Below, piece after piece: positions 2,877 through 11,419 of a stretch of 64,000 nucleotides of DNA. A program made the translations under genes and the position numbers. The notes beneath the pieces are model-generated. The model made no database searches. It was given only the letters and a program-made list of their open reading frames with translations, and was not told the DNA's origin. The DNA is taken from contig CAYQAW010000005.1 of the NCBI GenBank assembly GCA_964415615.1, positions 1,902-65,901 on the forward strand. The letters are read 5' to 3'. Source of the stretch: an uncultured Gammaproteobacteria bacterium. GTDB taxonomy: Bacteria > Patescibacteriota > Microgenomatia > Daviesbacterales > UBA10151. Numbering within the stretch: the first letter of the stretch is position 1; each line of letters starts with the position of its first letter.

Positions 2877-3290
2877 ATGGTTAACATCATTGTAAATTCA
2901 GATCCAAGATATAATGTAAATAAAGATAGTATTAGAGAAATTATAGCTGAAACGCTAAGAAAACTTCATGTTTCTGGCAGGGTTGAGATAGGAGTAAATA
3001 TTGTAGGTGATAGGAAAATGCATGAACTAAACAGAAAGTTCAGAGGACTGGATTCTACCACTAATATTCTATCTTTTGCCTTGGAGGATACAACTCCTTC
3101 TAGTTTGCAGCATATTCCTAAAATTGGATTTGTGGCAGCCCCAGATAAATGGTTACGACTTGGGGATATTGTTATTTCCTATCCGCAAGCATTAGAAGAT
3201 GCTTCTATGGATGGAATCTCTGTTGATACAGAAATTAGGAATTTAGTGGAACATGGTTTAAATCACCTGTTAGGAATTCATCACAATTAA
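2877..3290 (+). CDS. ybeY: rRNA maturation endoribonuclease YbeY
   Basis: HGLNHLLGIHH (H-x3-H-x5-H zinc motif) at the C-terminus; 137 aa. Confidence 0.85.
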   Translation: MVNIIVNSDPRYNVNKDSIREIIAETLRKLHVSGRVEIGVNIVGDRKMHELNRKFRGLDSTTNILSFALEDTTPSSLQHIPKIGFVAAPDKWLRLGDIVISYPQALEDASMDGISVDTEIRNLVEHGLNHLLGIHHN

Positions 3291-4876
3291 TGTCTAATAT
3301 AGCCTTTTATTTAAAGTATCGTCCTCAAACTTTGGGAGAATTAGTAGGTCAAGAAGCTGTCAGAAAAACCCTTCTCTCATCTTTTCAAAATAGTAAGCTC
3401 TCACATGCTTATCTATTTGTAGGCCCAAGGGGAACTGGGAAAACCTCAACAGCTCGAATACTGGCCAAAATGGTCAATTGTGAGGGTAAGGGGGAAAGCG
3501 GAAAGGGTGAAGTTCCCTGTAATCAATGTTCAATCTGTGTTTCCATTACTGATGGATCTAATTTAGACCTTATTGAAATTGATGCTGCTTCAAACAGGGG
3601 TATAGAAGATATCAGGTCTTTAAGGGATAAAATCAAGCTTGCTCCCAGCAGTTGCAAAAAGAAGGTCTATATTATTGATGAAGTTCATATGTTAACTCCT
3701 GAGGCTTTTAATGCTTTACTTAAAACTTTGGAAGAACCACCCTCTCATGTTTTATTTATTTTAGCAACCACCGAAGTCACAAAAATCCCTCAGACAATTT
3801 TATCAAGAGCTCAAAAGTTAGATTTTAAACTGGCCACATCTTCAGAATTACTGGAAGCTTTAGAAAGAATTGTTAAAAAAGAAGACATAGATATAGATCA
3901 AGAGGCTTTAAAAGCCTTGGTTAAAAAATCAGATGGATCTTTTAGAGATGGAGTTAAGCTTCTGGATCAAGTAGCTTCTATTGGGGAGAAAATTACCACT
4001 TCCTTTATTGAAGAAAATCTTAAATCCTCACAATTTGAAAGTATTTTGAGTCTGATACAAGCTTTTAAAGATAAAAATGCTGCTGAAGGATTGCTTAATA
4101 TTAGCAAGCAACTGGAGAGTGGAGTTGATGCTAAACAATTAATTTTGTCTCTGATGGATACTTTTAGGAGTTTAGTTTTTATTAAAAATAATGTTGGTGA
4201 GCAGTTGGTAAAAAATGGTTTAATAGAAGATAAATATCAGCAGTTAGTAAAAATTTCTGAAGATTTATCTATATCTGATTTAACTGAAAGTCTAAATGCT
4301 TTGCAAAACGCTTTGGAGAAATTAAAATTTGCTTCAATCCCATCTTTGCCTTTGGAGCTGGCAGTTGTAGAGATTTGCGGAGAACAATTGTCACATAAGA
4401 CGATAGATGATGGAAAATTGAAGATAGTGATAGAAGATAGCAAGATAGAAGATAGAAAAGTAATCAATCTTCAATCATCCATAGTCAAAGATTCATCTTC
4501 TATCATCTATGATCAATCGTCTAGCAATGATATCCAAAAGCTTAAGGAAAAGTGGACCTTTGTCTTAGAAACAATCAGACCATATAATTTTTCCTTAGAA
4601 GCTCTACTTAGGAATGTGATAATTAAAGACTGTACTTCTAATGCTGTAATCATGGAGGTGCCTTATTCTTTTCACCAAAGAATTTTAGAATCTCCTAAAA
4701 ACAGAGATCTTTTGGAGTCAATTTTCTCAGATATTTTAGGAAGAAGTATTAAGGCATCTACAGTATTGGGATTCAGGCCAACCAGAAAAGAAGATATAGC
4801 AAATATAGAAATAGCCCAGGACGATGAAATCATCAGAGCAGCAGCAGAAATCTTCAACTCTGATACAGTCAATTAA
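3290..4876 (+). CDS. dnaX: DNA polymerase III subunit gamma/tau
   Basis: AAA+ Walker A LFVGPRGTGKTS. Zinc module NCE...PCNQCSICV. Followed downstream by ybaB and recR. Confidence 0.9.
   Translation: MSNIAFYLKYRPQTLGELVGQEAVRKTLLSSFQNSKLSHAYLFVGPRGTGKTSTARILAKMVNCEGKGESGKGEVPCNQCSICVSITDGSNLDLIEIDAASNRGIEDIRSLRDKIKLAPSSCKKKVYIIDEVHMLTPEAFNALLKTLEEPPSHVLFILATTEVTKIPQTILSRAQKLDFKLATSSELLEALERIVKKEDIDIDQEALKALVKKSDGSFRDGVKLLDQVASIGEKITTSFIEENLKSSQFESILSLIQAFKDKNAAEGLLNISKQLESGVDAKQLILSLMDTFRSLVFIKNNVGEQLVKNGLIEDKYQQLVKISEDLSISDLTESLNALQNALEKLKFASIPSLPLELAVVEICGEQLSHKTIDDGKLKIVIEDSKIEDRKVINLQSSIVKDSSSIIYDQSSSNDIQKLKEKWTFVLETIRPYNFSLEALLRNVIIKDCTSNAVIMEVPYSFHQRILESPKNRDLLESIFSDILGRSIKASTVLGFRPTRKEDIANIEIAQDDEIIRAAAEIFNSDTVN
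4844..4876 (+). repeat. Left copy of a 33-nt imperfect direct repeat (dnaX 3' end, 29/33 identical to 5579-5611)
   Basis: gcagaaatcttcaactctgatacagtcaattaa versus gcagaaatctttaattctgatacaataaattaa. Confidence 0.85.
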
Positions 4877-4937
4877 TTATAATAATACTATTGTCTTATT
4901 GATAATTAAATAGCAATGAGATACAATTGTTATTGAT

Positions 4938-5174
4938 ATGGAAACTCTGACTACTATTACTCCTAAATTCCAAGTTCATATTCCAGTTGCCATCCGCAAA
5001 AAAATTGGCCTGAAAAAACACGGAAGGGCTATCATCAGGGTAGAAAAGAAAAAAATTATTATTGAACCTATTAAGTCTGATTTTTTATCATTGGGAGGAA
5101 AGTTTAGAGTTAAAAATCCCATCCCTGCAGAGAAAATTAGAGATTACATCGATTATACTGAGGGACGATATTAA
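4938..5174 (+). CDS. AbrB/SpoVT-type antitoxin (VapB-like) of a type II TA pair
   Basis: 78 aa, swapped-hairpin-like N-terminus. Immediately precedes a PIN gene with a 5-nt gap. Confidence 0.6.
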   Translation: METLTTITPKFQVHIPVAIRKKIGLKKHGRAIIRVEKKKIIIEPIKSDFLSLGGKFRVKNPIPAEKIRDYIDYTEGRY

Positions 5175-5179
5175 TTTTT

Positions 5180-5611
5180 GTGGATAAGATATTTATAGAT
5201 ACAAGTATCTTTATCAGATTTTTGACTAAAGATATCCCAGAAAAATATGAGGAGTGTGAAAACCTTTTTAAGATTATCCAGAATGGGGAGGCTAAATCAT
5301 ATATTTCAAATTTTGTGATTTTTGAGATAGTATTTGTACTCACCCGCCAGTATAAATTTCCTAAGAAAAGAGTTTTGCAAATACTCGATCAAATACTCAA
5401 GATCCGTAATATCATAGTAATTGAACAGACTGATGTTACTAAAGCTGTGAAGTTTTACAATAAATACAATATCAAGTACGGAGATTGTGTTATCGCCACA
5501 CAAATTCCTAAAGGAGTTAGTATAGTTACTTATGACGCGGATTTTTCTAAAATACCTTCCTTAAAGTCCATCACACCCGCAGAAATCTTTAATTCTGATA
5601 CAATAAATTAA
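5180..5611 (+). CDS. PIN-domain ribonuclease toxin (VapC-like)
   Basis: N-terminal IFIDTSIFI (conserved PIN Asp); 143 aa. The last 11 codons lie in a direct repeat of the dnaX 3' end. Confidence 0.75.
   Translation: MDKIFIDTSIFIRFLTKDIPEKYEECENLFKIIQNGEAKSYISNFVIFEIVFVLTRQYKFPKKRVLQILDQILKIRNIIVIEQTDVTKAVKFYNKYNIKYGDCVIATQIPKGVSIVTYDADFSKIPSLKSITPAEIFNSDTIN
5579..5611 (+). repeat. Right copy of the 33-nt direct repeat; encodes the VapC C-terminus ...AEIFNSDTIN*
   Basis: Direct sequence comparison. Both copies end in TAA and encode EIFNSDT(V/I)N. Confidence 0.85.
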
Positions 5612-5661
5612 ATTTTCCTCCTTGAAAAGTAAGTAATAGTTTTTATATACTCTTTGCATTA

Positions 5662-6951
5662 ATGGTATCAAAGGTTTTTAAATTAATTGCAGAAGAAGCC
5701 CACAGACAAAAGTATGGCCTGGAGATGATCCCCTCAGAAAATTATGTTTCAGAAGACGTCTTAAAAGCCCTAGGTTCAATTTTGACTAATAAATACTCAG
5801 AAGGTTTTCCTGGCAGAAGATATTATGGTGGTAATGAAGTTATTGATAAAATTGAAAGCTATGCTTGTGAGTTGGCAAATAAACTTTTTGGTACCAAATA
5901 TGCTTTTGTTCAGCCCTATTCTGGTTCTCCTGCAAATCAAGCTGTGACTTTAGCAGTATGTGAACCAGGTGATGTAGTGATGGGATTATCACTTGCATCA
6001 GGTGGTCATTTAACTCATGGAGCAAAGCTGTCTTTTTCCAGCATTTTTTACAAAGCTGTAAATTATGAGGTTGGTAAAGATTGGAAAATAGATTATGAAC
6101 AGCTGGAAGCTTTAGCTAAAAAGCATAAACCAAAATTAATTTGGGCTGGAACTACGGCTTATCCTTTTAAGTTAGATTATAAAAAGTTTAGACAAATTGC
6201 AGATATGGTGGGAGCAACTTTGGTTGCAGACTGTTCTCATATTACAGGGTTGATAATTGGAGGGGTGCATCAATCACCAGTTCCATATGTTGATTTGATA
6301 ATGACTACTACCCATAAAACTTTAAGAGGCCCTAGGGGAGCAATTATTTTAGTTACCCAAAGAGGTTTCAAAAAAGATCCGGAAATAAAAGCCAAAATAG
6401 AAAGAGCAATTATTCCTGGTATTCAGGGGGGTCCACATAATCATCAAACTGCAGCTATTGCAGTGTGTTTGGAAGAAGCCTTAAAGCCATCATTTAAAAA
6501 GTATGCTGAACAAATTGCTAAGAATGCTGAGGTTTTAGCAAAAGAATTAGGAACTGTTTCCCAAACTCATCTAGTGCTTTTAAGTCTAACGGATTATGGA
6601 TATGGAATGGGTTATCAAGCGCAGTTCGCTTTAGAAGAAGCAGGAATTACTGTTAATAAAAATTCTATTCCAGGTGAACCAGCCTCTCCTTTTTATCCCT
6701 CAGGAATAAGATTAGGTACTCCAGCTTTAACTACAAGAGGAATGAAGGAAAAAGATATGGTCAAGATTGCGGGTTGGATTAAGAGGGTTTTAGAAGAAAT
6801 CAGGGGTTTAGACTTACCAAAAGAGCAAGATAGCAGGAAAGACTTTTTGAAGGAAGCAAAGGCAATTTTACGTAAAAATAAAAACTTAAAACAAGTAAGA
6901 ATTGAAGTAGAACAGTTTGCTGGTAAATTTCCAGTTCCAGGGATCAAATAA
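5662..6951 (+). CDS. glyA: Serine hydroxymethyltransferase
   Basis: PLP-lysine region TTTHKTLRGPRGAIIL; 429 aa. Confidence 0.9.
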   Translation: MVSKVFKLIAEEAHRQKYGLEMIPSENYVSEDVLKALGSILTNKYSEGFPGRRYYGGNEVIDKIESYACELANKLFGTKYAFVQPYSGSPANQAVTLAVCEPGDVVMGLSLASGGHLTHGAKLSFSSIFYKAVNYEVGKDWKIDYEQLEALAKKHKPKLIWAGTTAYPFKLDYKKFRQIADMVGATLVADCSHITGLIIGGVHQSPVPYVDLIMTTTHKTLRGPRGAIILVTQRGFKKDPEIKAKIERAIIPGIQGGPHNHQTAAIAVCLEEALKPSFKKYAEQIAKNAEVLAKELGTVSQTHLVLLSLTDYGYGMGYQAQFALEEAGITVNKNSIPGEPASPFYPSGIRLGTPALTTRGMKEKDMVKIAGWIKRVLEEIRGLDLPKEQDSRKDFLKEAKAILRKNKNLKQVRIEVEQFAGKFPVPGIK

Positions 6952-6952
6952 C

Positions 6953-7786
6953 ATGAAAGTATCTGGCAAAAAGGTTGCAGATATTATTGCCAAGAAACTC
7001 CAACAACAAGTACAATATTTAGAAGTTAAACCAGCCCTAGCTATAATTTTAGCAGGTGATAATCCAGCTTCCAGGATTTATGTTAATAATAAAATAATAA
7101 GGGCCCAAGAGGTAGGAGTTGAGGCTAGGCTTCTGGAATTTTCCCAAGACCAATTTGAGGATTGTTTAAAAACAATTGAGGATTTAAATTCTGATAAAAA
7201 TATTCATGGAATAATTATCCAGTATCCTACATATGAGGGTTGGGATTTTGATAAGTTACTTTCTAAAATTGATCCTAAAAAGGATGTTGATGGGTTTTTA
7301 CCAGACTCTCCTTTTTTTGGAGCTACAGCAGTAGGGGTGTGGGAAATGTTGACAGCTTTTGCCTATCAGGAAGGATTTAAAAAAACAGAAGATTTCTTGA
7401 AGGGTAAAAAGATTATTTTACTAGGTAGGGGTAAAACTGCTGGAAGGCCCACAAAGGAACTTTTAGAAAACAAGGGATTTGAGGTTGAAGTAGTTTCCAG
7501 AGAAACAGAAAATCCTGAAGAGGTAATAAAACAAGGAGATGTGGTAATTTCTGCAACAGGGGTAAAAAATATTATTAATAAATCTAACTTAAAAAGAGGA
7601 GTATATGTAATAGGAGTAGGTGTTGGGAAAGAGGTAATTGATGGTCAGTCAAAAATATATGGGGATATAAATGAGCAGGAAGTTGCAGAAGTAGCTAAAT
7701 TATATTGCCCAACCATTGGAGGTATAGGGCCATTAACAATTGTATCTCTTTTGGAAAATGTGATAAAATCAGCAAAAGGAGTTTAA
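6953..7786 (+). CDS. folD: Bifunctional methylene-THF dehydrogenase / methenyl-THF cyclohydrolase
   Basis: GRGKTAGRP and GGIGPLTIVSLLENV motifs. Start chosen at the internal ATG (MKVSGKK) to avoid overlapping glyA. Confidence 0.85.
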   Translation: MKVSGKKVADIIAKKLQQQVQYLEVKPALAIILAGDNPASRIYVNNKIIRAQEVGVEARLLEFSQDQFEDCLKTIEDLNSDKNIHGIIIQYPTYEGWDFDKLLSKIDPKKDVDGFLPDSPFFGATAVGVWEMLTAFAYQEGFKKTEDFLKGKKIILLGRGKTAGRPTKELLENKGFEVEVVSRETENPEEVIKQGDVVISATGVKNIINKSNLKRGVYVIGVGVGKEVIDGQSKIYGDINEQEVAEVAKLYCPTIGGIGPLTIVSLLENVIKSAKGV

Positions 7787-7790
7787 ATAT

Positions 7791-8069
7791 ATGGGGTTAA
7801 TGGATAATTTAAAACAGCTTGGGGATCTCAAGAAGATGAGAGATCAAGCTATGGAAGTACAAAAAAGACTGGCTGGCATTAAAATTACTGTGGAACATAG
7901 AGGTGTAACAGTAGTGATGACTGCTGATCAAAAAGTTGTTTCCATTTCTGGAGATAATGATTTGAATAAAGTTGCTGAAGCAGTTAATGAAGCCTTAAAA
8001 CAATCTCAAAAAGTAGCAGCAGATGAGATGAAACCAATGATGGGTGGCATGGGCATCCCAGGGATGTAA
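7791..8069 (+). CDS. ybaB: Nucleoid-associated protein YbaB/EbfC
   Basis: 92 aa. N-terminus MGLMDNLKQLGDLKKMRDQA...VTVVMTADQKVVSISGD is typical. Sits between dnaX and recR. Confidence 0.85.
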   Translation: MGLMDNLKQLGDLKKMRDQAMEVQKRLAGIKITVEHRGVTVVMTADQKVVSISGDNDLNKVAEAVNEALKQSQKVAADEMKPMMGGMGIPGM

Positions 8070-8092: not shown

Positions 8093-8698
8093 TTGACCAC
8101 AATGGCACATGTTCCCAAATCAGTTCAAAGTTTAATAGAAGCTTTTGAAAGGCTGCCTGGTATTGGTCCAAAAACAGCTCAAAGGCTAACTTATTATCTT
8201 CTTCATGCTCCTATTGAGGAAGCAAAAGCTTTAGCTGAGGCAGCTGTGGGAATGAAAGAAAAAACCAAGATTTGTTCTATTTGTTTCAATATTGGGGAGG
8301 AAGATCTCTGTCAAATTTGTTCTGATCCTAATAGAGAAAAGGAAGTCCTTGCTGTGGTAGAAAACCCTTTAGATGTTTTAGCTTTAGAAAAAGCAAATTT
8401 TAAGGGTCTTTACCATGTTTTACATGGAGTTATTTCACCTTTGGAAAATATTGGTCCTTCAGAAATTCATATCAGGGAGCTTTTGCCAAGACTTAAGGAT
8501 GGTAGTGTTAAGGAGATAATTTTAGCAACTAATCCAACCATGGAGGGAGAAGCTACTGCTATGTATATTCAGAGATTAATTGCTCCTTTGGGAGTTAAAG
8601 TTACCAGGATTGCGAGAGGTTTGCCAGTTGGATCAGATTTAGAGTATGCTGATGAGACAACATTATCCAGAGCATTGGAGGGTAGGAAAGAATACTAG
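8093..8698 (+). CDS. recR: Recombination protein RecR
   Basis: HhH LPGIGPKTAQRL, C4 zinc finger CSIC...CQIC, Toprim domain. Confidence 0.9.
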   Translation: MTTMAHVPKSVQSLIEAFERLPGIGPKTAQRLTYYLLHAPIEEAKALAEAAVGMKEKTKICSICFNIGEEDLCQICSDPNREKEVLAVVENPLDVLALEKANFKGLYHVLHGVISPLENIGPSEIHIRELLPRLKDGSVKEIILATNPTMEGEATAMYIQRLIAPLGVKVTRIARGLPVGSDLEYADETTLSRALEGRKEY

Positions 8699-9104: not shown

Positions 9105-10504
9105 GAATTTATAACACACTAACCAAAAAAGTAGAGGACCTTATTCCTTTAAATCCCCCAAAGGTGGGAATGTACGCCTGTGGTCCGACAGTTTATGATT
9201 ACTCCCACATTGGGCATTTAAGAAAATATGTAAGTGATGATATTTTAAGAAGAGTTTTGGAAAACAGTGGTTATGAAGTTAAGCATGTGATGAATATTAC
9301 TGATGTTGGACACTTGGTTTCTGATGAAGACTCTGGTGAGGATAAGATGGAAAAAGGAGCAAGGGAATCTGGGAGGACTGTTTGGGAAGTGGCTAAGTTT
9401 TATGAAGATTATTTTTGGAAATCAGTAGATACTGTAAATACAAAAAGACCAAGTATAGTTGCCAAAGCCACAGATCATATTGAAGAACAAGTTAAGTTAA
9501 TCCAAAAACTAGAAAAAAATGGGTTTATTTATCAAACAGATCAGGCAATTTATTTTGATATTTCCAAATTTCCTAATTACACCAAATTATCTGGACAAAA
9601 ATTAGAAGAAAAAGAAATTGGAGCAAGAGAAGATGTAGTCATAGATAAACAAAAGAAAAGTCCAGTGGACTTTGCCCTGTGGTTTTTTACTGTTGGGCAT
9701 TTTGAGGGCCATAGCATGAGATGGCCTTCTCCTTGGGGTGAAGGATTTCCTGGTTGGCACATAGAGTGTTCTGCTATGAGTATGGAATACTTGGGGGATT
9801 CTTTTGAAGTCCATACAGGAGGAATAGATCATATTCCTGTTCATCATACCAATGAGATTGCCCAATCTGAGGCAGCTACAGGAAAACCCTTTGTTAAATA
9901 TTGGGTTCATCATAATTTCTTAATAGTAGATGGAGAAAAAATGTCCAAGTCCAAGAAGAATTTTTATAGAATTGATGAGATTATAGAGAAAGGTTTTGAT
10001 CCTTTGGCTTTAAGATATTTATTTCTAACAGCTCACTACAGAGATAAATTAAATTTTACCTGGGAATCTTTACAAGCTGCCCAAAATGCTTTGAATAACT
10101 TAAGGGAAACTGTCAGGAATTGGGAGCAGCCAAAGATTGGTTGTGCTCAATTTGAGCAGGATTTTACAGCAGCAATAAACAATGATTTAAATACCCCACA
10201 AGCACTAGCAGTTTTATGGGAACTAGTTAAGAGTGACTATCCAACTTCAGCTAAAGCCAAAACTATTTTAGAAATGGATAAAATTTTAGGGCTAAAATTA
10301 GATGAATATTTAGACAAAAAGATAGAAGTTCCAGAAGAGGTACAAGAGCTTGTTAACCAAAGAGAAAAGGTAAGAAAATCAGGAGACTTTAAAGCCTCAG
10401 ATGAGCTGCGTCATCAAATCAAAAAGCTAGGATATGAAATAGAAGACACTCCAACTGGACCAAAAATTAAAGGTTTAGTTGATATAAGACTCCTTCCGTG
10501 TTAA
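9101..10504 (+). CDS. cysS: Cysteinyl-tRNA synthetase
   Basis: HIGH motif (SHIGHLR), KMSKS, zinc-binding Cys near N-terminus (CGPTVYD); 467 aa. Confidence 0.9.
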   Translation: MRIYNTLTKKVEDLIPLNPPKVGMYACGPTVYDYSHIGHLRKYVSDDILRRVLENSGYEVKHVMNITDVGHLVSDEDSGEDKMEKGARESGRTVWEVAKFYEDYFWKSVDTVNTKRPSIVAKATDHIEEQVKLIQKLEKNGFIYQTDQAIYFDISKFPNYTKLSGQKLEEKEIGAREDVVIDKQKKSPVDFALWFFTVGHFEGHSMRWPSPWGEGFPGWHIECSAMSMEYLGDSFEVHTGGIDHIPVHHTNEIAQSEAATGKPFVKYWVHHNFLIVDGEKMSKSKKNFYRIDEIIEKGFDPLALRYLFLTAHYRDKLNFTWESLQAAQNALNNLRETVRNWEQPKIGCAQFEQDFTAAINNDLNTPQALAVLWELVKSDYPTSAKAKTILEMDKILGLKLDEYLDKKIEVPEEVQELVNQREKVRKSGDFKASDELRHQIKKLGYEIEDTPTGPKIKGLVDIRLLPC

Positions 10505-11001
10505 AATGTACCCCTTATATGTCAAAGGAAGTTGTTGCAAGTTATTCTCTGAAATGTGAAGGTGTTAGCCCAACTGAGGTTGCTCCTTTACTAGATCATC
10601 CTGCAGAGCCAAGTTTAACTATCTTCAAAGATGGGTCTAGATCCGTAGGTTGCCCATATTTATTTTCAGGGGTATGCTATGCTTCAGAATCTTCAAAATC
10701 AATATGTACACAACTTTTTCCTGAAACTAATACAGGCATGCCTCAACAGTTTGGACAACATGATAGGCCATTGAAAAATGATGTAGTAGAAGTAGACGGT
10801 GAAAGATTAGGTAGTTTGAGATTACAACACCATTTAACTTTGAGGATCTTAGGTCGAGCAGCAAGAATTAGTGTATCCACATTATCGCAATTGGAAAATG
10901 GAAAAACGACAAGATTAGGTCATCCTAAAGCTGAACGATTAGCACATGCTCTAGGAGTCGATTTAGAACAATTTAGACAAGTAGCTCAGGAAAATAAATA
11001 A
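10498..11001 (+). CDS. XRE-family helix-turn-helix protein with C-terminal HTH; atypical composition
   Basis: C-terminal LRILGRAARISVSTLSQLENGKTT...LAHALGVDLEQF matches HTH_3/XRE. The N-terminal half has no similarity. GC is visibly higher than neighbours. Confidence 0.45.
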   Translation: MLKCTPYMSKEVVASYSLKCEGVSPTEVAPLLDHPAEPSLTIFKDGSRSVGCPYLFSGVCYASESSKSICTQLFPETNTGMPQQFGQHDRPLKNDVVEVDGERLGSLRLQHHLTLRILGRAARISVSTLSQLENGKTTRLGHPKAERLAHALGVDLEQFRQVAQENK

Positions 11002-11022: not shown

Positions 11023-11334
11023 TTGGACGTGAACATTTTGGTTAAAAGTTCATTTTGTTTTCGATCGAAAAATTTTGTCACAAAAAACGCCAGTGGTTTT
11101 GGTGGTATAATATTACTTAATATGAAATTAAAGATTGCTCAAATTAAAGAAAAAGTTGTGCCTATTTTAAAAGGAGCAGAGGTAACCCGCTCATCTATTT
11201 TTGGTTTCTATGTCCGTGCTTGCGTGATAGAATCCTGGATGAGCAGGTTCGCATTCTATGATAAAAGACCCACAAATTTTTCTTTCAGATATGAGAAGTA
11301 CGCTTATACGCGGTTATTTTCAAGTAGATCTTGA
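11023..11334 (+). CDS. Hypothetical protein (doubtful)
   Basis: ORF only. Contains a 17-nt exact match to the purL coding sequence. Confidence 0.2.
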   Translation: MDVNILVKSSFCFRSKNFVTKNASGFGGIILLNMKLKIAQIKEKVVPILKGAEVTRSSIFGFYVRACVIESWMSRFAFYDKRPTNFSFRYEKYAYTRLFSSRS

Positions 11335-11419
11335 TATTATTTGGGATATGAGTACAAATGATCTGCCATTATTTAAGAAACAAATTAAAGAACTTCTCGA
11401 AGAAACAAAAAAATAGACC

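Follow-up and report, generated by a model that had tools for sequence, protein, structure and literature searches.

The vapBC cassette and the repeated dnaX end

The DNA analysed here is a 64,000-nt stretch of contig CAYQAW010000005.1 (GenBank assembly GCA_964415615.1, positions 1,902 to 65,901 of the forward strand), referred to below as the window. A VapBC toxin-antitoxin (TA) cassette lies directly downstream of dnaX in the window, and the last codons of dnaX are repeated at the end of the toxin gene, vapC. Few chromosomal TA systems are as abundant as VapBC modules or as poorly understood, and their link to cell physiology is a long-standing question.

All features of the locus are on the plus strand. 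The dnaX gene (3290..4876) encodes the tau/gamma clamp-loader subunit of DNA polymerase III (Pol III; 528 aa), with Pfam matches to DNA_pol3_delta2 (E=8e-43), DNAX_ATPase_lid, DNA_pol3_gamma3 and DnaX_C, and its product is identical to DnaX of assembly GCA_016180885.1. As a preliminary description of this DNA had claimed, the last 33 nt of dnaX (copy 1: 4844-4876, GCAGAAATCTTCAACTCTGATACAGTCAATTAA) recur at the end of the PIN toxin gene (copy 2: 5579-5611, GCAGAAATCTTTAATTCTGATACAATAAATTAA), with 29/33 identical positions. The copies have the same orientation and are 735 nt apart, start to start. Each holds the last 10 codons and the stop codon of its gene, so that DnaX ends in AEIFNSDTVN and VapC in AEIFNSDTIN; this peptide is called the tail below.

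In a repeat search of the region, no two-copy direct repeat was longer than this one, which the search widened from 33 to 38 nt at 84% identity (4839-4876 / 5574-5611). Chance matches were modelled as Poisson-binomial with the base composition of the window (35% GC) on both strands: 2.6e-8 sites matching the repeat at 29/33 or better were expected in the 64 kb, and the next best match anywhere in the window was 20/33. No third copy was found in the window, at either the DNA or the peptide level. The duplicated dnaX end beside vapBC is thus confirmed as a real observation.

Only an AbrB/MazE-type antitoxin and a PIN toxin lie between the copies, and here too the open reading frames (ORFs) of the window and their Pfam matches agree with the preliminary description. 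The vapB gene (4938..5174) encodes a 78-aa antitoxin with an AbrB/SpoVT/MazE-type swapped-hairpin DNA-binding domain (Pfam MazE_antitoxin, PF04014, E=2.3e-6), and is followed after 5 nt, in the same orientation, by vapC (5180..5611), which encodes a 143-aa PIN-domain RNase toxin (Pfam PIN, PF01850, E=1.8e-14, residues 4-126). The pairing of vapB with vapC was kept in all homologous loci, and vapB was 80-94% identical between dnaX-linked cassettes.

The spacer between dnaX and vapB (4877..4937) contains a putative vapBC promoter/operator, with a -35/-10-like pair at 4899-4927 (TTGATA-17-TACAAT, by consensus scan). The same architecture (ATTGAYA...TAYAAT...TATTG) precedes vapB in every family member, irrespective of genomic context; this conserved region, which starts a few nt past the dnaX stop codon, is therefore part of the cassette. 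Repeated TATTG/CAATA elements occur around the -35 and past the -10 in the window (4890-4937; ATTGACA..N..TAYAAT..TATTG). Cassettes in unrelated contexts have them too, and they are probably the VapB operator. A second promoter-like site (5622..5651, TTGAAA-18-TATACT, by consensus scan) lies 5' of the right-hand neighbour glyA, and in orthologous loci the stop codon of vapC is followed by a CTCCTTGAC-type -35.

The window VapC is identical to a protein of the Ca. Daviesbacteria metagenome-assembled genome (MAG) GCA_016180885.1 (contig JACPAI010000005.1), and the window is Ca. Daviesbacteria DNA. Its PIN domain extends to about residue 131 and the tail occupies residues 134-143. The acidic residues D/E7, E49, D102 and D119 were invariant or nearly so in an alignment of 44 homologues. 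The AlphaFold2 model has a mean predicted local distance difference test score (pLDDT) of 93 and a confident PIN fold that matched solved VapC structures in Foldseek; the tail is modelled as a C-terminal helix (residues 133-141, pLDDT ~82). On these features the locus is a type II VapBC cassette whose toxin has a predicted RNase activity.

Known type II VapBC systems (Shigella/Salmonella VapBC, Rickettsia felis VapBC2 [PDB 3ZVK], M. tuberculosis VapBC11/15/20) share with it the bicistronic order with an upstream AbrB/MazE-fold antitoxin, and a PIN toxin of ~130-140 aa with conserved acidic residues and a predicted fold like that of solved VapCs; a promoter/operator of the cassette's own, putative here, would be a further likeness. 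Unlike them, the VapC described here ends in an extra 7-10 residues copied from dnaX, the essential gene next to it. This extension is conserved, it evolves together with its dnaX counterpart, and the cassette is fixed at one site across a clade. We know of no VapC with a tail taken from a host replisome protein, and a literature search for VapC together with dnaX returned nothing relevant.

The top Foldseek match of the VapC model in the PDB was PcrIIC1 (8WMM chain G, E=5.6e-7), ahead of classical VapC toxins. PcrIIC1 is a VapC-like PIN protein that binds Cas9, which shows that such proteins can be co-opted by other molecular machines as binding partners; it is 24% identical to the VapC described here, is encoded in an unrelated context and has no antitoxin-linked dnaX tail.

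Distribution and evolution of the tail

Comparison loci are designated below by L numbers. A search of genome contigs for dnaX relatives was dominated by the universal Walker-B word YIIDEVHM and gave a single near relative, L012; the remaining 79 dnaX loci from that search were used for the comparison of DnaX C-termini and of dnaX-recR synteny. DnaX proteins of dozens of phyla end in the motif ..(D)P-h-h-x-x-A-x-x-h-F-G-x-x-h-h.., and when DnaX C-termini of over 20 phylum-level sources were aligned with E. coli tau, the F was the sole invariant column. The AEIFNSDTVN of the window occupies the distal half of this motif and is its native end.

In L012, whose DnaX is 49% identical to that of the window, DnaX ends in AAEIFSSDAN, vapBC and the second copy are absent, and glyA starts ~65 nt past dnaX. 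None of about 35 VapBC homologues on metagenome contigs that are not next to dnaX had the tail; these unlinked VapCs all have native ends, for instance TPAELL, TPAEVL, TPSEIIK and TPDEIFKELGLLG, each directly before the stop codon. Likewise, when 1.84 billion 50%-cluster representatives were scanned without a profile, the tail was aligned in only 1 of the best 150 matches, so that the similarity is not a generic property of VapC proteins. Because the motif is near-universal in DnaX, present as a single copy in L012 and absent from unlinked VapCs, the tail is, on this evidence, native to DnaX and derived in VapC, with copy 1 the original and copy 2 (5579..5611) the dnaX-derived one. The duplication therefore comes from dnaX and brackets exactly the vapBC cassette, as had been proposed, and the suggested comparison of relatives with and without the cassette identified L012 as the empty site, with one copy and dnaX followed by glyA. 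The homology starts where the native VapC end (..TP-A-E-I/L) and the DnaX end (..A-A-E-I-F) coincide, at a GCNGAAAT microhomology, and ends at the stop codon.

Among the 44 aligned VapC homologues, AEIFNSD[TS][VI]N is the C-terminus of many, the least similar of these being 58% identical, and the more distant ones end natively in ..TP-x-E-[ILF]-[LIV]. Every VapC with an intact end that is encoded next to dnaX had the tail, and no VapC from another location had it. The gene order (ybeY)-dnaX-vapB-vapC-glyA-folD-ybaB-recR was found in nine loci (L003, L004, L008, L132, L134, L135, L136, L138, L140), with VapCs 52-87% and DnaX N-terminal regions 60-72% identical; eight of these have the tail, and L132 kept the synteny and lost it. 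Since the synteny is conserved in genomes so diverged, the cassette is old and fixed at this site, and not a recent arrival: judged from gene order and divergence, vapBC has been between dnaX and glyA since before three Ca. Daviesbacteria lineages diverged. All looked-up members of these lineages carry the cassette, and the distant L012 is the sole empty site found, which speaks against a recent or patchy insertion.

The preliminary description had also taken vapBC together with glyA-folD to interrupt a usual dnaX-ybaB-recR arrangement. That arrangement is broadly usual, with recR within 2.5 kb downstream of dnaX in 57/79 dnaX loci of other phyla and glyA there in 0/79; glyA-folD do not belong to the same interruption, as they already lie between dnaX and ybaB in L012, which has no vapBC.

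Small lineage-specific insertions were observed at the junctions on both sides of vapBC, none of them a recombinase. They include a trypsin-like peptidase ORF between dnaX and vapB (L134:3645-4706), two unannotated ORFs at the cassette borders (L136:1003-1374 and 2235-2981), a DUF5671 gene and a 282-aa ORF between vapC and glyA (L140:991-2483) and a 777-aa DUF1554 protein at the cassette junction (L133:738-3071).

The two tails were compared over 10 codons in nine genomes. They were identical at 26.0/30 positions within a genome and at 23.0/30 between genomes (permutation P ~4e-5), and at third codon positions at 7.1/10 within and 4.9/10 between genomes (P ~3e-5). Codon-usage bias was rejected as the cause of this likeness at third positions, as codon usage by itself predicts a match of only 4.95 within vs 4.86 between genomes. 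Individual genomes gave the same picture: 36 nt are identical between the dnaX and vapC tails of L003; both tails of L135 end in FSSDTVN and both stop codons are TAG; both tails of L134 end in SDSIN, with the copies 1.8 kb apart on either side of the peptidase gene; L008 has S at position -3 in both; and both tails of L140 start with GCG GAA ATT TTC AAC TCC. L134 and L135 belong to the VapC group of the window and each has its own shared variant, and homogenization must therefore be later than insertion. Gene conversion between the direct repeats, which would keep the tails alike, is the simplest explanation of these patterns.

Counted across the nine genomes, 25 synonymous and 11 non-synonymous differences separate the vapC tail from that of dnaX, with proportions of synonymous (pS) and non-synonymous (pN) differences of 0.45 and 0.05 (ratio 0.11). 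A neutral vapC copy beside a fully constrained dnaX copy would be expected to give 66% non-synonymous differences, and 31% were observed (P=1.7e-5). The pN/pS ratio between orthologues was 0.12 in the vapC tail, compared with 0.095 in that of dnaX, and synonymous sites were close to saturated; between VapCs the tail was 83% identical and the remainder of the protein 62%. Since the differences are mostly synonymous, the vapC tail is, as far as these comparisons allow it to be judged, under purifying selection at the amino-acid level, of roughly the strength that acts on the end of DnaX.

Function and origin of the tail

The observations are best accounted for, with a confidence slightly better than even, by a VapBC toxin that has captured the dnaX tail, under selection and matched to the dnaX copy by conversion. 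According to this explanation, an old vapBC cassette with its own promoter/operator, AbrB-type antitoxin and PIN RNase toxin is located between dnaX and glyA, and its toxin gene passes, at the shared 'AEI' codons, into a copy of the last 7-10 codons and stop codon of dnaX, in place of the native ..TP-A/S-E-I/L-L/V end. The vapC copy would be a working part of the toxin and not a scar, and gene conversion would match it to the dnaX tail of the same genome. This much was read or deduced directly from the comparison of sequences. The locus would also be a clean natural case of a short linear motif moved between neighbouring genes by gene-end duplication, and would indicate that gene conversion acts on a repeat of only 30-36 nt in the reduced genomes of the Candidate Phyla Radiation.

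What the tail does can be suggested from E. coli tau, of which residues 626-643 are the binding site for the Pol III alpha subunit and the L635P/D636G variant is severely defective (PMC11470591). The C-terminus of E. coli tau (..NNIQTLRRFFDAELDEESIRPI) was confirmed in PDB entries 5fku and 8gj0. The C-terminal 138 aa of the window DnaX gave no match in the PDB with phmmer, and a DnaX C-terminal profile matched DnaA domain I and Taq tau (4IQJ) there over the globular part only, not the tail. Because these searches missed it, the tail was placed by motif alignment with the end of E. coli tau: AEIFNSDTVN stands opposite RRFFDAELDE (residues 628-637), and the invariant F corresponds to F631. The DnaX tail would then be the terminal part of the motif that forms the E. 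coli peptide, and the VapC tail a near-identical copy of it; unlike in tau, only the distal half of the motif is present in VapC and it is attached to a PIN domain, not to tau domain V, and alpha binding is a prediction here.

The likeliest role of the tail would thus be that of a molecular mimic of the alpha-binding peptide of tau, a tentative proposal that is plausible and not probable. It would give VapC or the VapBC complex an affinity for Pol III alpha, the partner of tau; the toxin would then be tethered to the replisome or sequestered there, or could, in its free form, compete with tau. If the mimicry is true, the toxin might be held at the replicative polymerase, be delivered to it or, once freed, compete with tau. 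The further step, a VapBC module wired to the replicative polymerase with its tail matched by gene conversion, which would be a replisome-coupled type not described before, is doubtful. A VapC that holds a peptide of an essential replisome subunit under long selection, with both copies evolving in concert, still makes a toxin-replisome link a testable hypothesis, in which the tail might bind DnaE; no dnaE gene was found in the 64-kb window.

TA toxins that act on the beta sliding clamp have been described, namely SocB of Caulobacter and RipA of S. pneumoniae (PMC5422525, PMC12795458). They are possible functional analogues, as a TA system is joined to a replisome component by protein-protein contact; unlike the VapC described here they are not PIN RNases, their target is DnaN and not alpha, and they have no copied host peptide, and the link proposed here comes from sequence only.

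Several points weigh against the favoured explanation. All comparison data are MAGs or metagenome contigs. The selection test was limited to genomes with a recognizable tail (10 codons, nine genomes) and is therefore subject to ascertainment bias. The tail is cut or degenerate in ~10/31 sequence clusters of the dnaX-linked groups: it is deleted in L132, a 12-nt insertion with a stop codon precedes an out-of-frame tail remnant in L133, and further degenerate cases are P0014/P0019, P0018, P0009 and P0032. The tau motif is represented in VapC by its distal half only, without the upstream ..DDEIIRAA.., and the equivalence with the E. coli alpha-binding peptide is a motif alignment of short, diverged sequences. 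Finally, a neighbour-joining (NJ) bootstrap tree of the PIN domains resolved three tail-bearing groups (supports 87, 88 and 100) and joined them in 1% of bootstraps with no alternative placement supported, so that a single origin is unsupported by the tree; the three groups share one representative at 50% clustering. From the pattern of retention and loss, the tail is apparently advantageous in most lineages and not indispensable.

The evidence for protein-level selection would equally fit a functional tail that is some other C-terminal signal shared by the two proteins, such as a tag recognized by a common partner or a degron for an AAA+ protease of which DnaX is also a substrate. The ClpXP protease of Caulobacter both processes DnaX and breaks down SocB, a toxin directed at the replisome (PMC5422525), which is a precedent for one protease acting on a clamp-loader subunit and a toxin, and such a signal in VapC would co-regulate the level of the toxin with that of tau. 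That work stresses the N-domain of ClpX and not a C-terminal tag (PMC5422525), and alpha binding is the best-documented role of the tau C-terminal peptide (PMC11470591); we regard a shared signal as quite unlikely. It is also improbable, to a similar degree, that the vapC tail is a neutral by-product kept only by frequent overwriting from the selected dnaX tail. Concerted evolution is clear at the DNA level, including third positions and the type of stop codon, and repeated loss or truncation means that the tail is not essential, both as overwriting would predict; yet conversion erases synonymous and non-synonymous changes alike, and would leave the 66% non-synonymous differences expected for a neutral copy, not the 31% seen. 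The copies of L136 differ at 6/30 coding positions, of which 5 are synonymous, and a pS of 0.45 between copies implies that conversion is too rare to explain the conservation of the amino acids. An element acting at the nucleotide level at both 3' ends (a regulatory RNA or DNA site, an RNase cleavage site or a small RNA target) would account for copies kept alike at the DNA level within a genome, and is highly improbable: between genomes the peptide is conserved at a pS of 0.72-0.79, near saturation, the block of conservation follows the codon boundaries exactly and ends at the stop codon, and no terminator-like or strong hairpin feature was found at the repeat.

The preliminary description had offered, as one reading of the 33-mers, a site-specific integration into the 3' end of dnaX by a larger element with a replacement gene end, which then decayed until only the addiction module was left. 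In this model the 33-mers would be attL and attR attachment sites, the integrase would have been lost, and the vapC copy would be a relic that happens to be in frame. The geometry fits this, since direct repeats of a gene 3' end bracket the insert precisely, dnaX is intact and L012 has a single-copy empty site; the extra lineage-specific ORFs inside or beside the repeats in L134, L136 and L140 and the mosaic recombination in the region would fit as well, and three VapC groups that are not one clade could mean repeated insertions at one site. The absence of an integrase noted in that description was borne out: no integrase or recombinase Pfam family was found in or beside the cassette in at least 10 dnaX-vapBC loci, extra ORFs included. 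This absence counts against the integration reading, as does the lack of any tailed cassette at other sites, on viral contigs (scanned with the VapC family and with a degenerate tail pattern) or, when sought there in the loci examined, beside an integrase. Nothing points to a larger element, and among the members looked up the cassette is fixed in deeply diverged lineages and not patchy. The limits of homology are the limits of coding (AEI to stop), the footprint of a coding constraint where an att core would leave another. The 25 synonymous against 11 non-synonymous differences are not what a relic would give, the variants that L134 and L135 (group B) each share between copies require later gene conversion anyway, and the right-hand copy is predicted to be translated, more conserved than the rest of VapC and in step with the dnaX copy, so that the description as a scar does not hold. 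Integration with subsequent decay is thus an unlikely account of the whole, although recombination into the dnaX 3' end may have been the origin; it is insufficient to explain the present state.

For the origin of the tail in the captured and selected form favoured above, the candidates are a single crossover of tail-bearing circular DNA and a microhomology-mediated rearrangement at GCNGAAAT. A rearrangement at this microhomology, or a longer dnaX fragment that was integrated and then deleted, would be as compatible with the data as site-specific or Campbell-type integration. In E. coli, e14 and phage 21 reportedly integrate at icd with a replacement gene end. They share with the present locus the direct repeat of a gene 3' end, the intact target frame and the empty site in a relative; here, in contrast, the insert is 0.7 kb, without an integrase, ancient and fixed, and the distal repeat is part of another protein, under purifying selection, with limits that are those of coding.

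Three other types of element were considered and rejected: an integron attC site, as the repeat is not palindromic; a transposon target-site duplication, for which 33 nt is too long; and IS200/IS605-type mobilization, as the only Y1 transposase observed was 5 kb away from an unrelated, tail-less cassette (L139). The caution for annotation is that an att scar should not be assumed wherever a gene end is duplicated next to a TA pair.

Neighbouring genes and mosaic surroundings

Downstream of the cassette, glyA (5662..6951; serine hydroxymethyltransferase, Pfam SHMT, E=2e-135) is followed by folD (6953..7786; Pfam THF_DHG_CYH and THF_DHG_CYH_C, gene call in L001), ybaB (7791-8069; Pfam YbaB_DNA_bd) and recR (8093-8698; Pfam RecR domains), all on the plus strand, the last two being the usual downstream partners of dnaX.

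As a check for vertical inheritance of the cassette, identities of VapC and of the DnaX C-terminal domain were compared across loci; they were not correlated (r ~-0.1 to -0.2), and VapC identity tracked that of GlyA (r=0.87). A patch of ~180 nt in the dnaX C-terminal domain of L132 (L132:187-367) is 92-98% identical to L003, in lineages that are otherwise ~75-80% identical; next to the patch, L132 has a vapC and a glyA like those of the window's lineage and not those of L003. The patch indicates short-patch homologous recombination between lineages, as far as can be read from the alignments. Hopping of the cassette was rejected as the reason for the absent VapC-DnaX correlation, given that VapC tracks GlyA and that L132 has the dnaX patch. 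The region is evidently mosaic, and the DnaX C-terminal domain appears to be a poor marker.

The folD gene of L008 (L008:6804-7631) is only 35% identical to that of the window (6953-7786), with flanking ybaB and recR at 82-83%, and glyA of L003 (5570-6907) is unusually divergent at 58%. It seems that glyA-folD, in its position between dnaX and ybaB, is readily replaced by xenologues.

An extra gene of ~143 aa that is not in the window lies between ybaB and recR in L012 (L012:10252-10686) and L008 (L008:7917-8348). The L012 protein may resemble the four-helix-bundle proteins of 23S rRNA intervening sequences.

Further downstream in the window (11023-11416, plus strand), a 103-aa ORF without a Pfam match precedes a 52-aa ORF (11258-11416, plus strand) in which the C-terminal part of a HepT-like (HEPN) RNase toxin is left (PF01934, E=1e-7, positions 84-119 of the 120 in the profile). 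Situated between an XRE-type helix-turn-helix gene (10498-11001) and cmk, the two ORFs look like what is left of a decayed second TA module.

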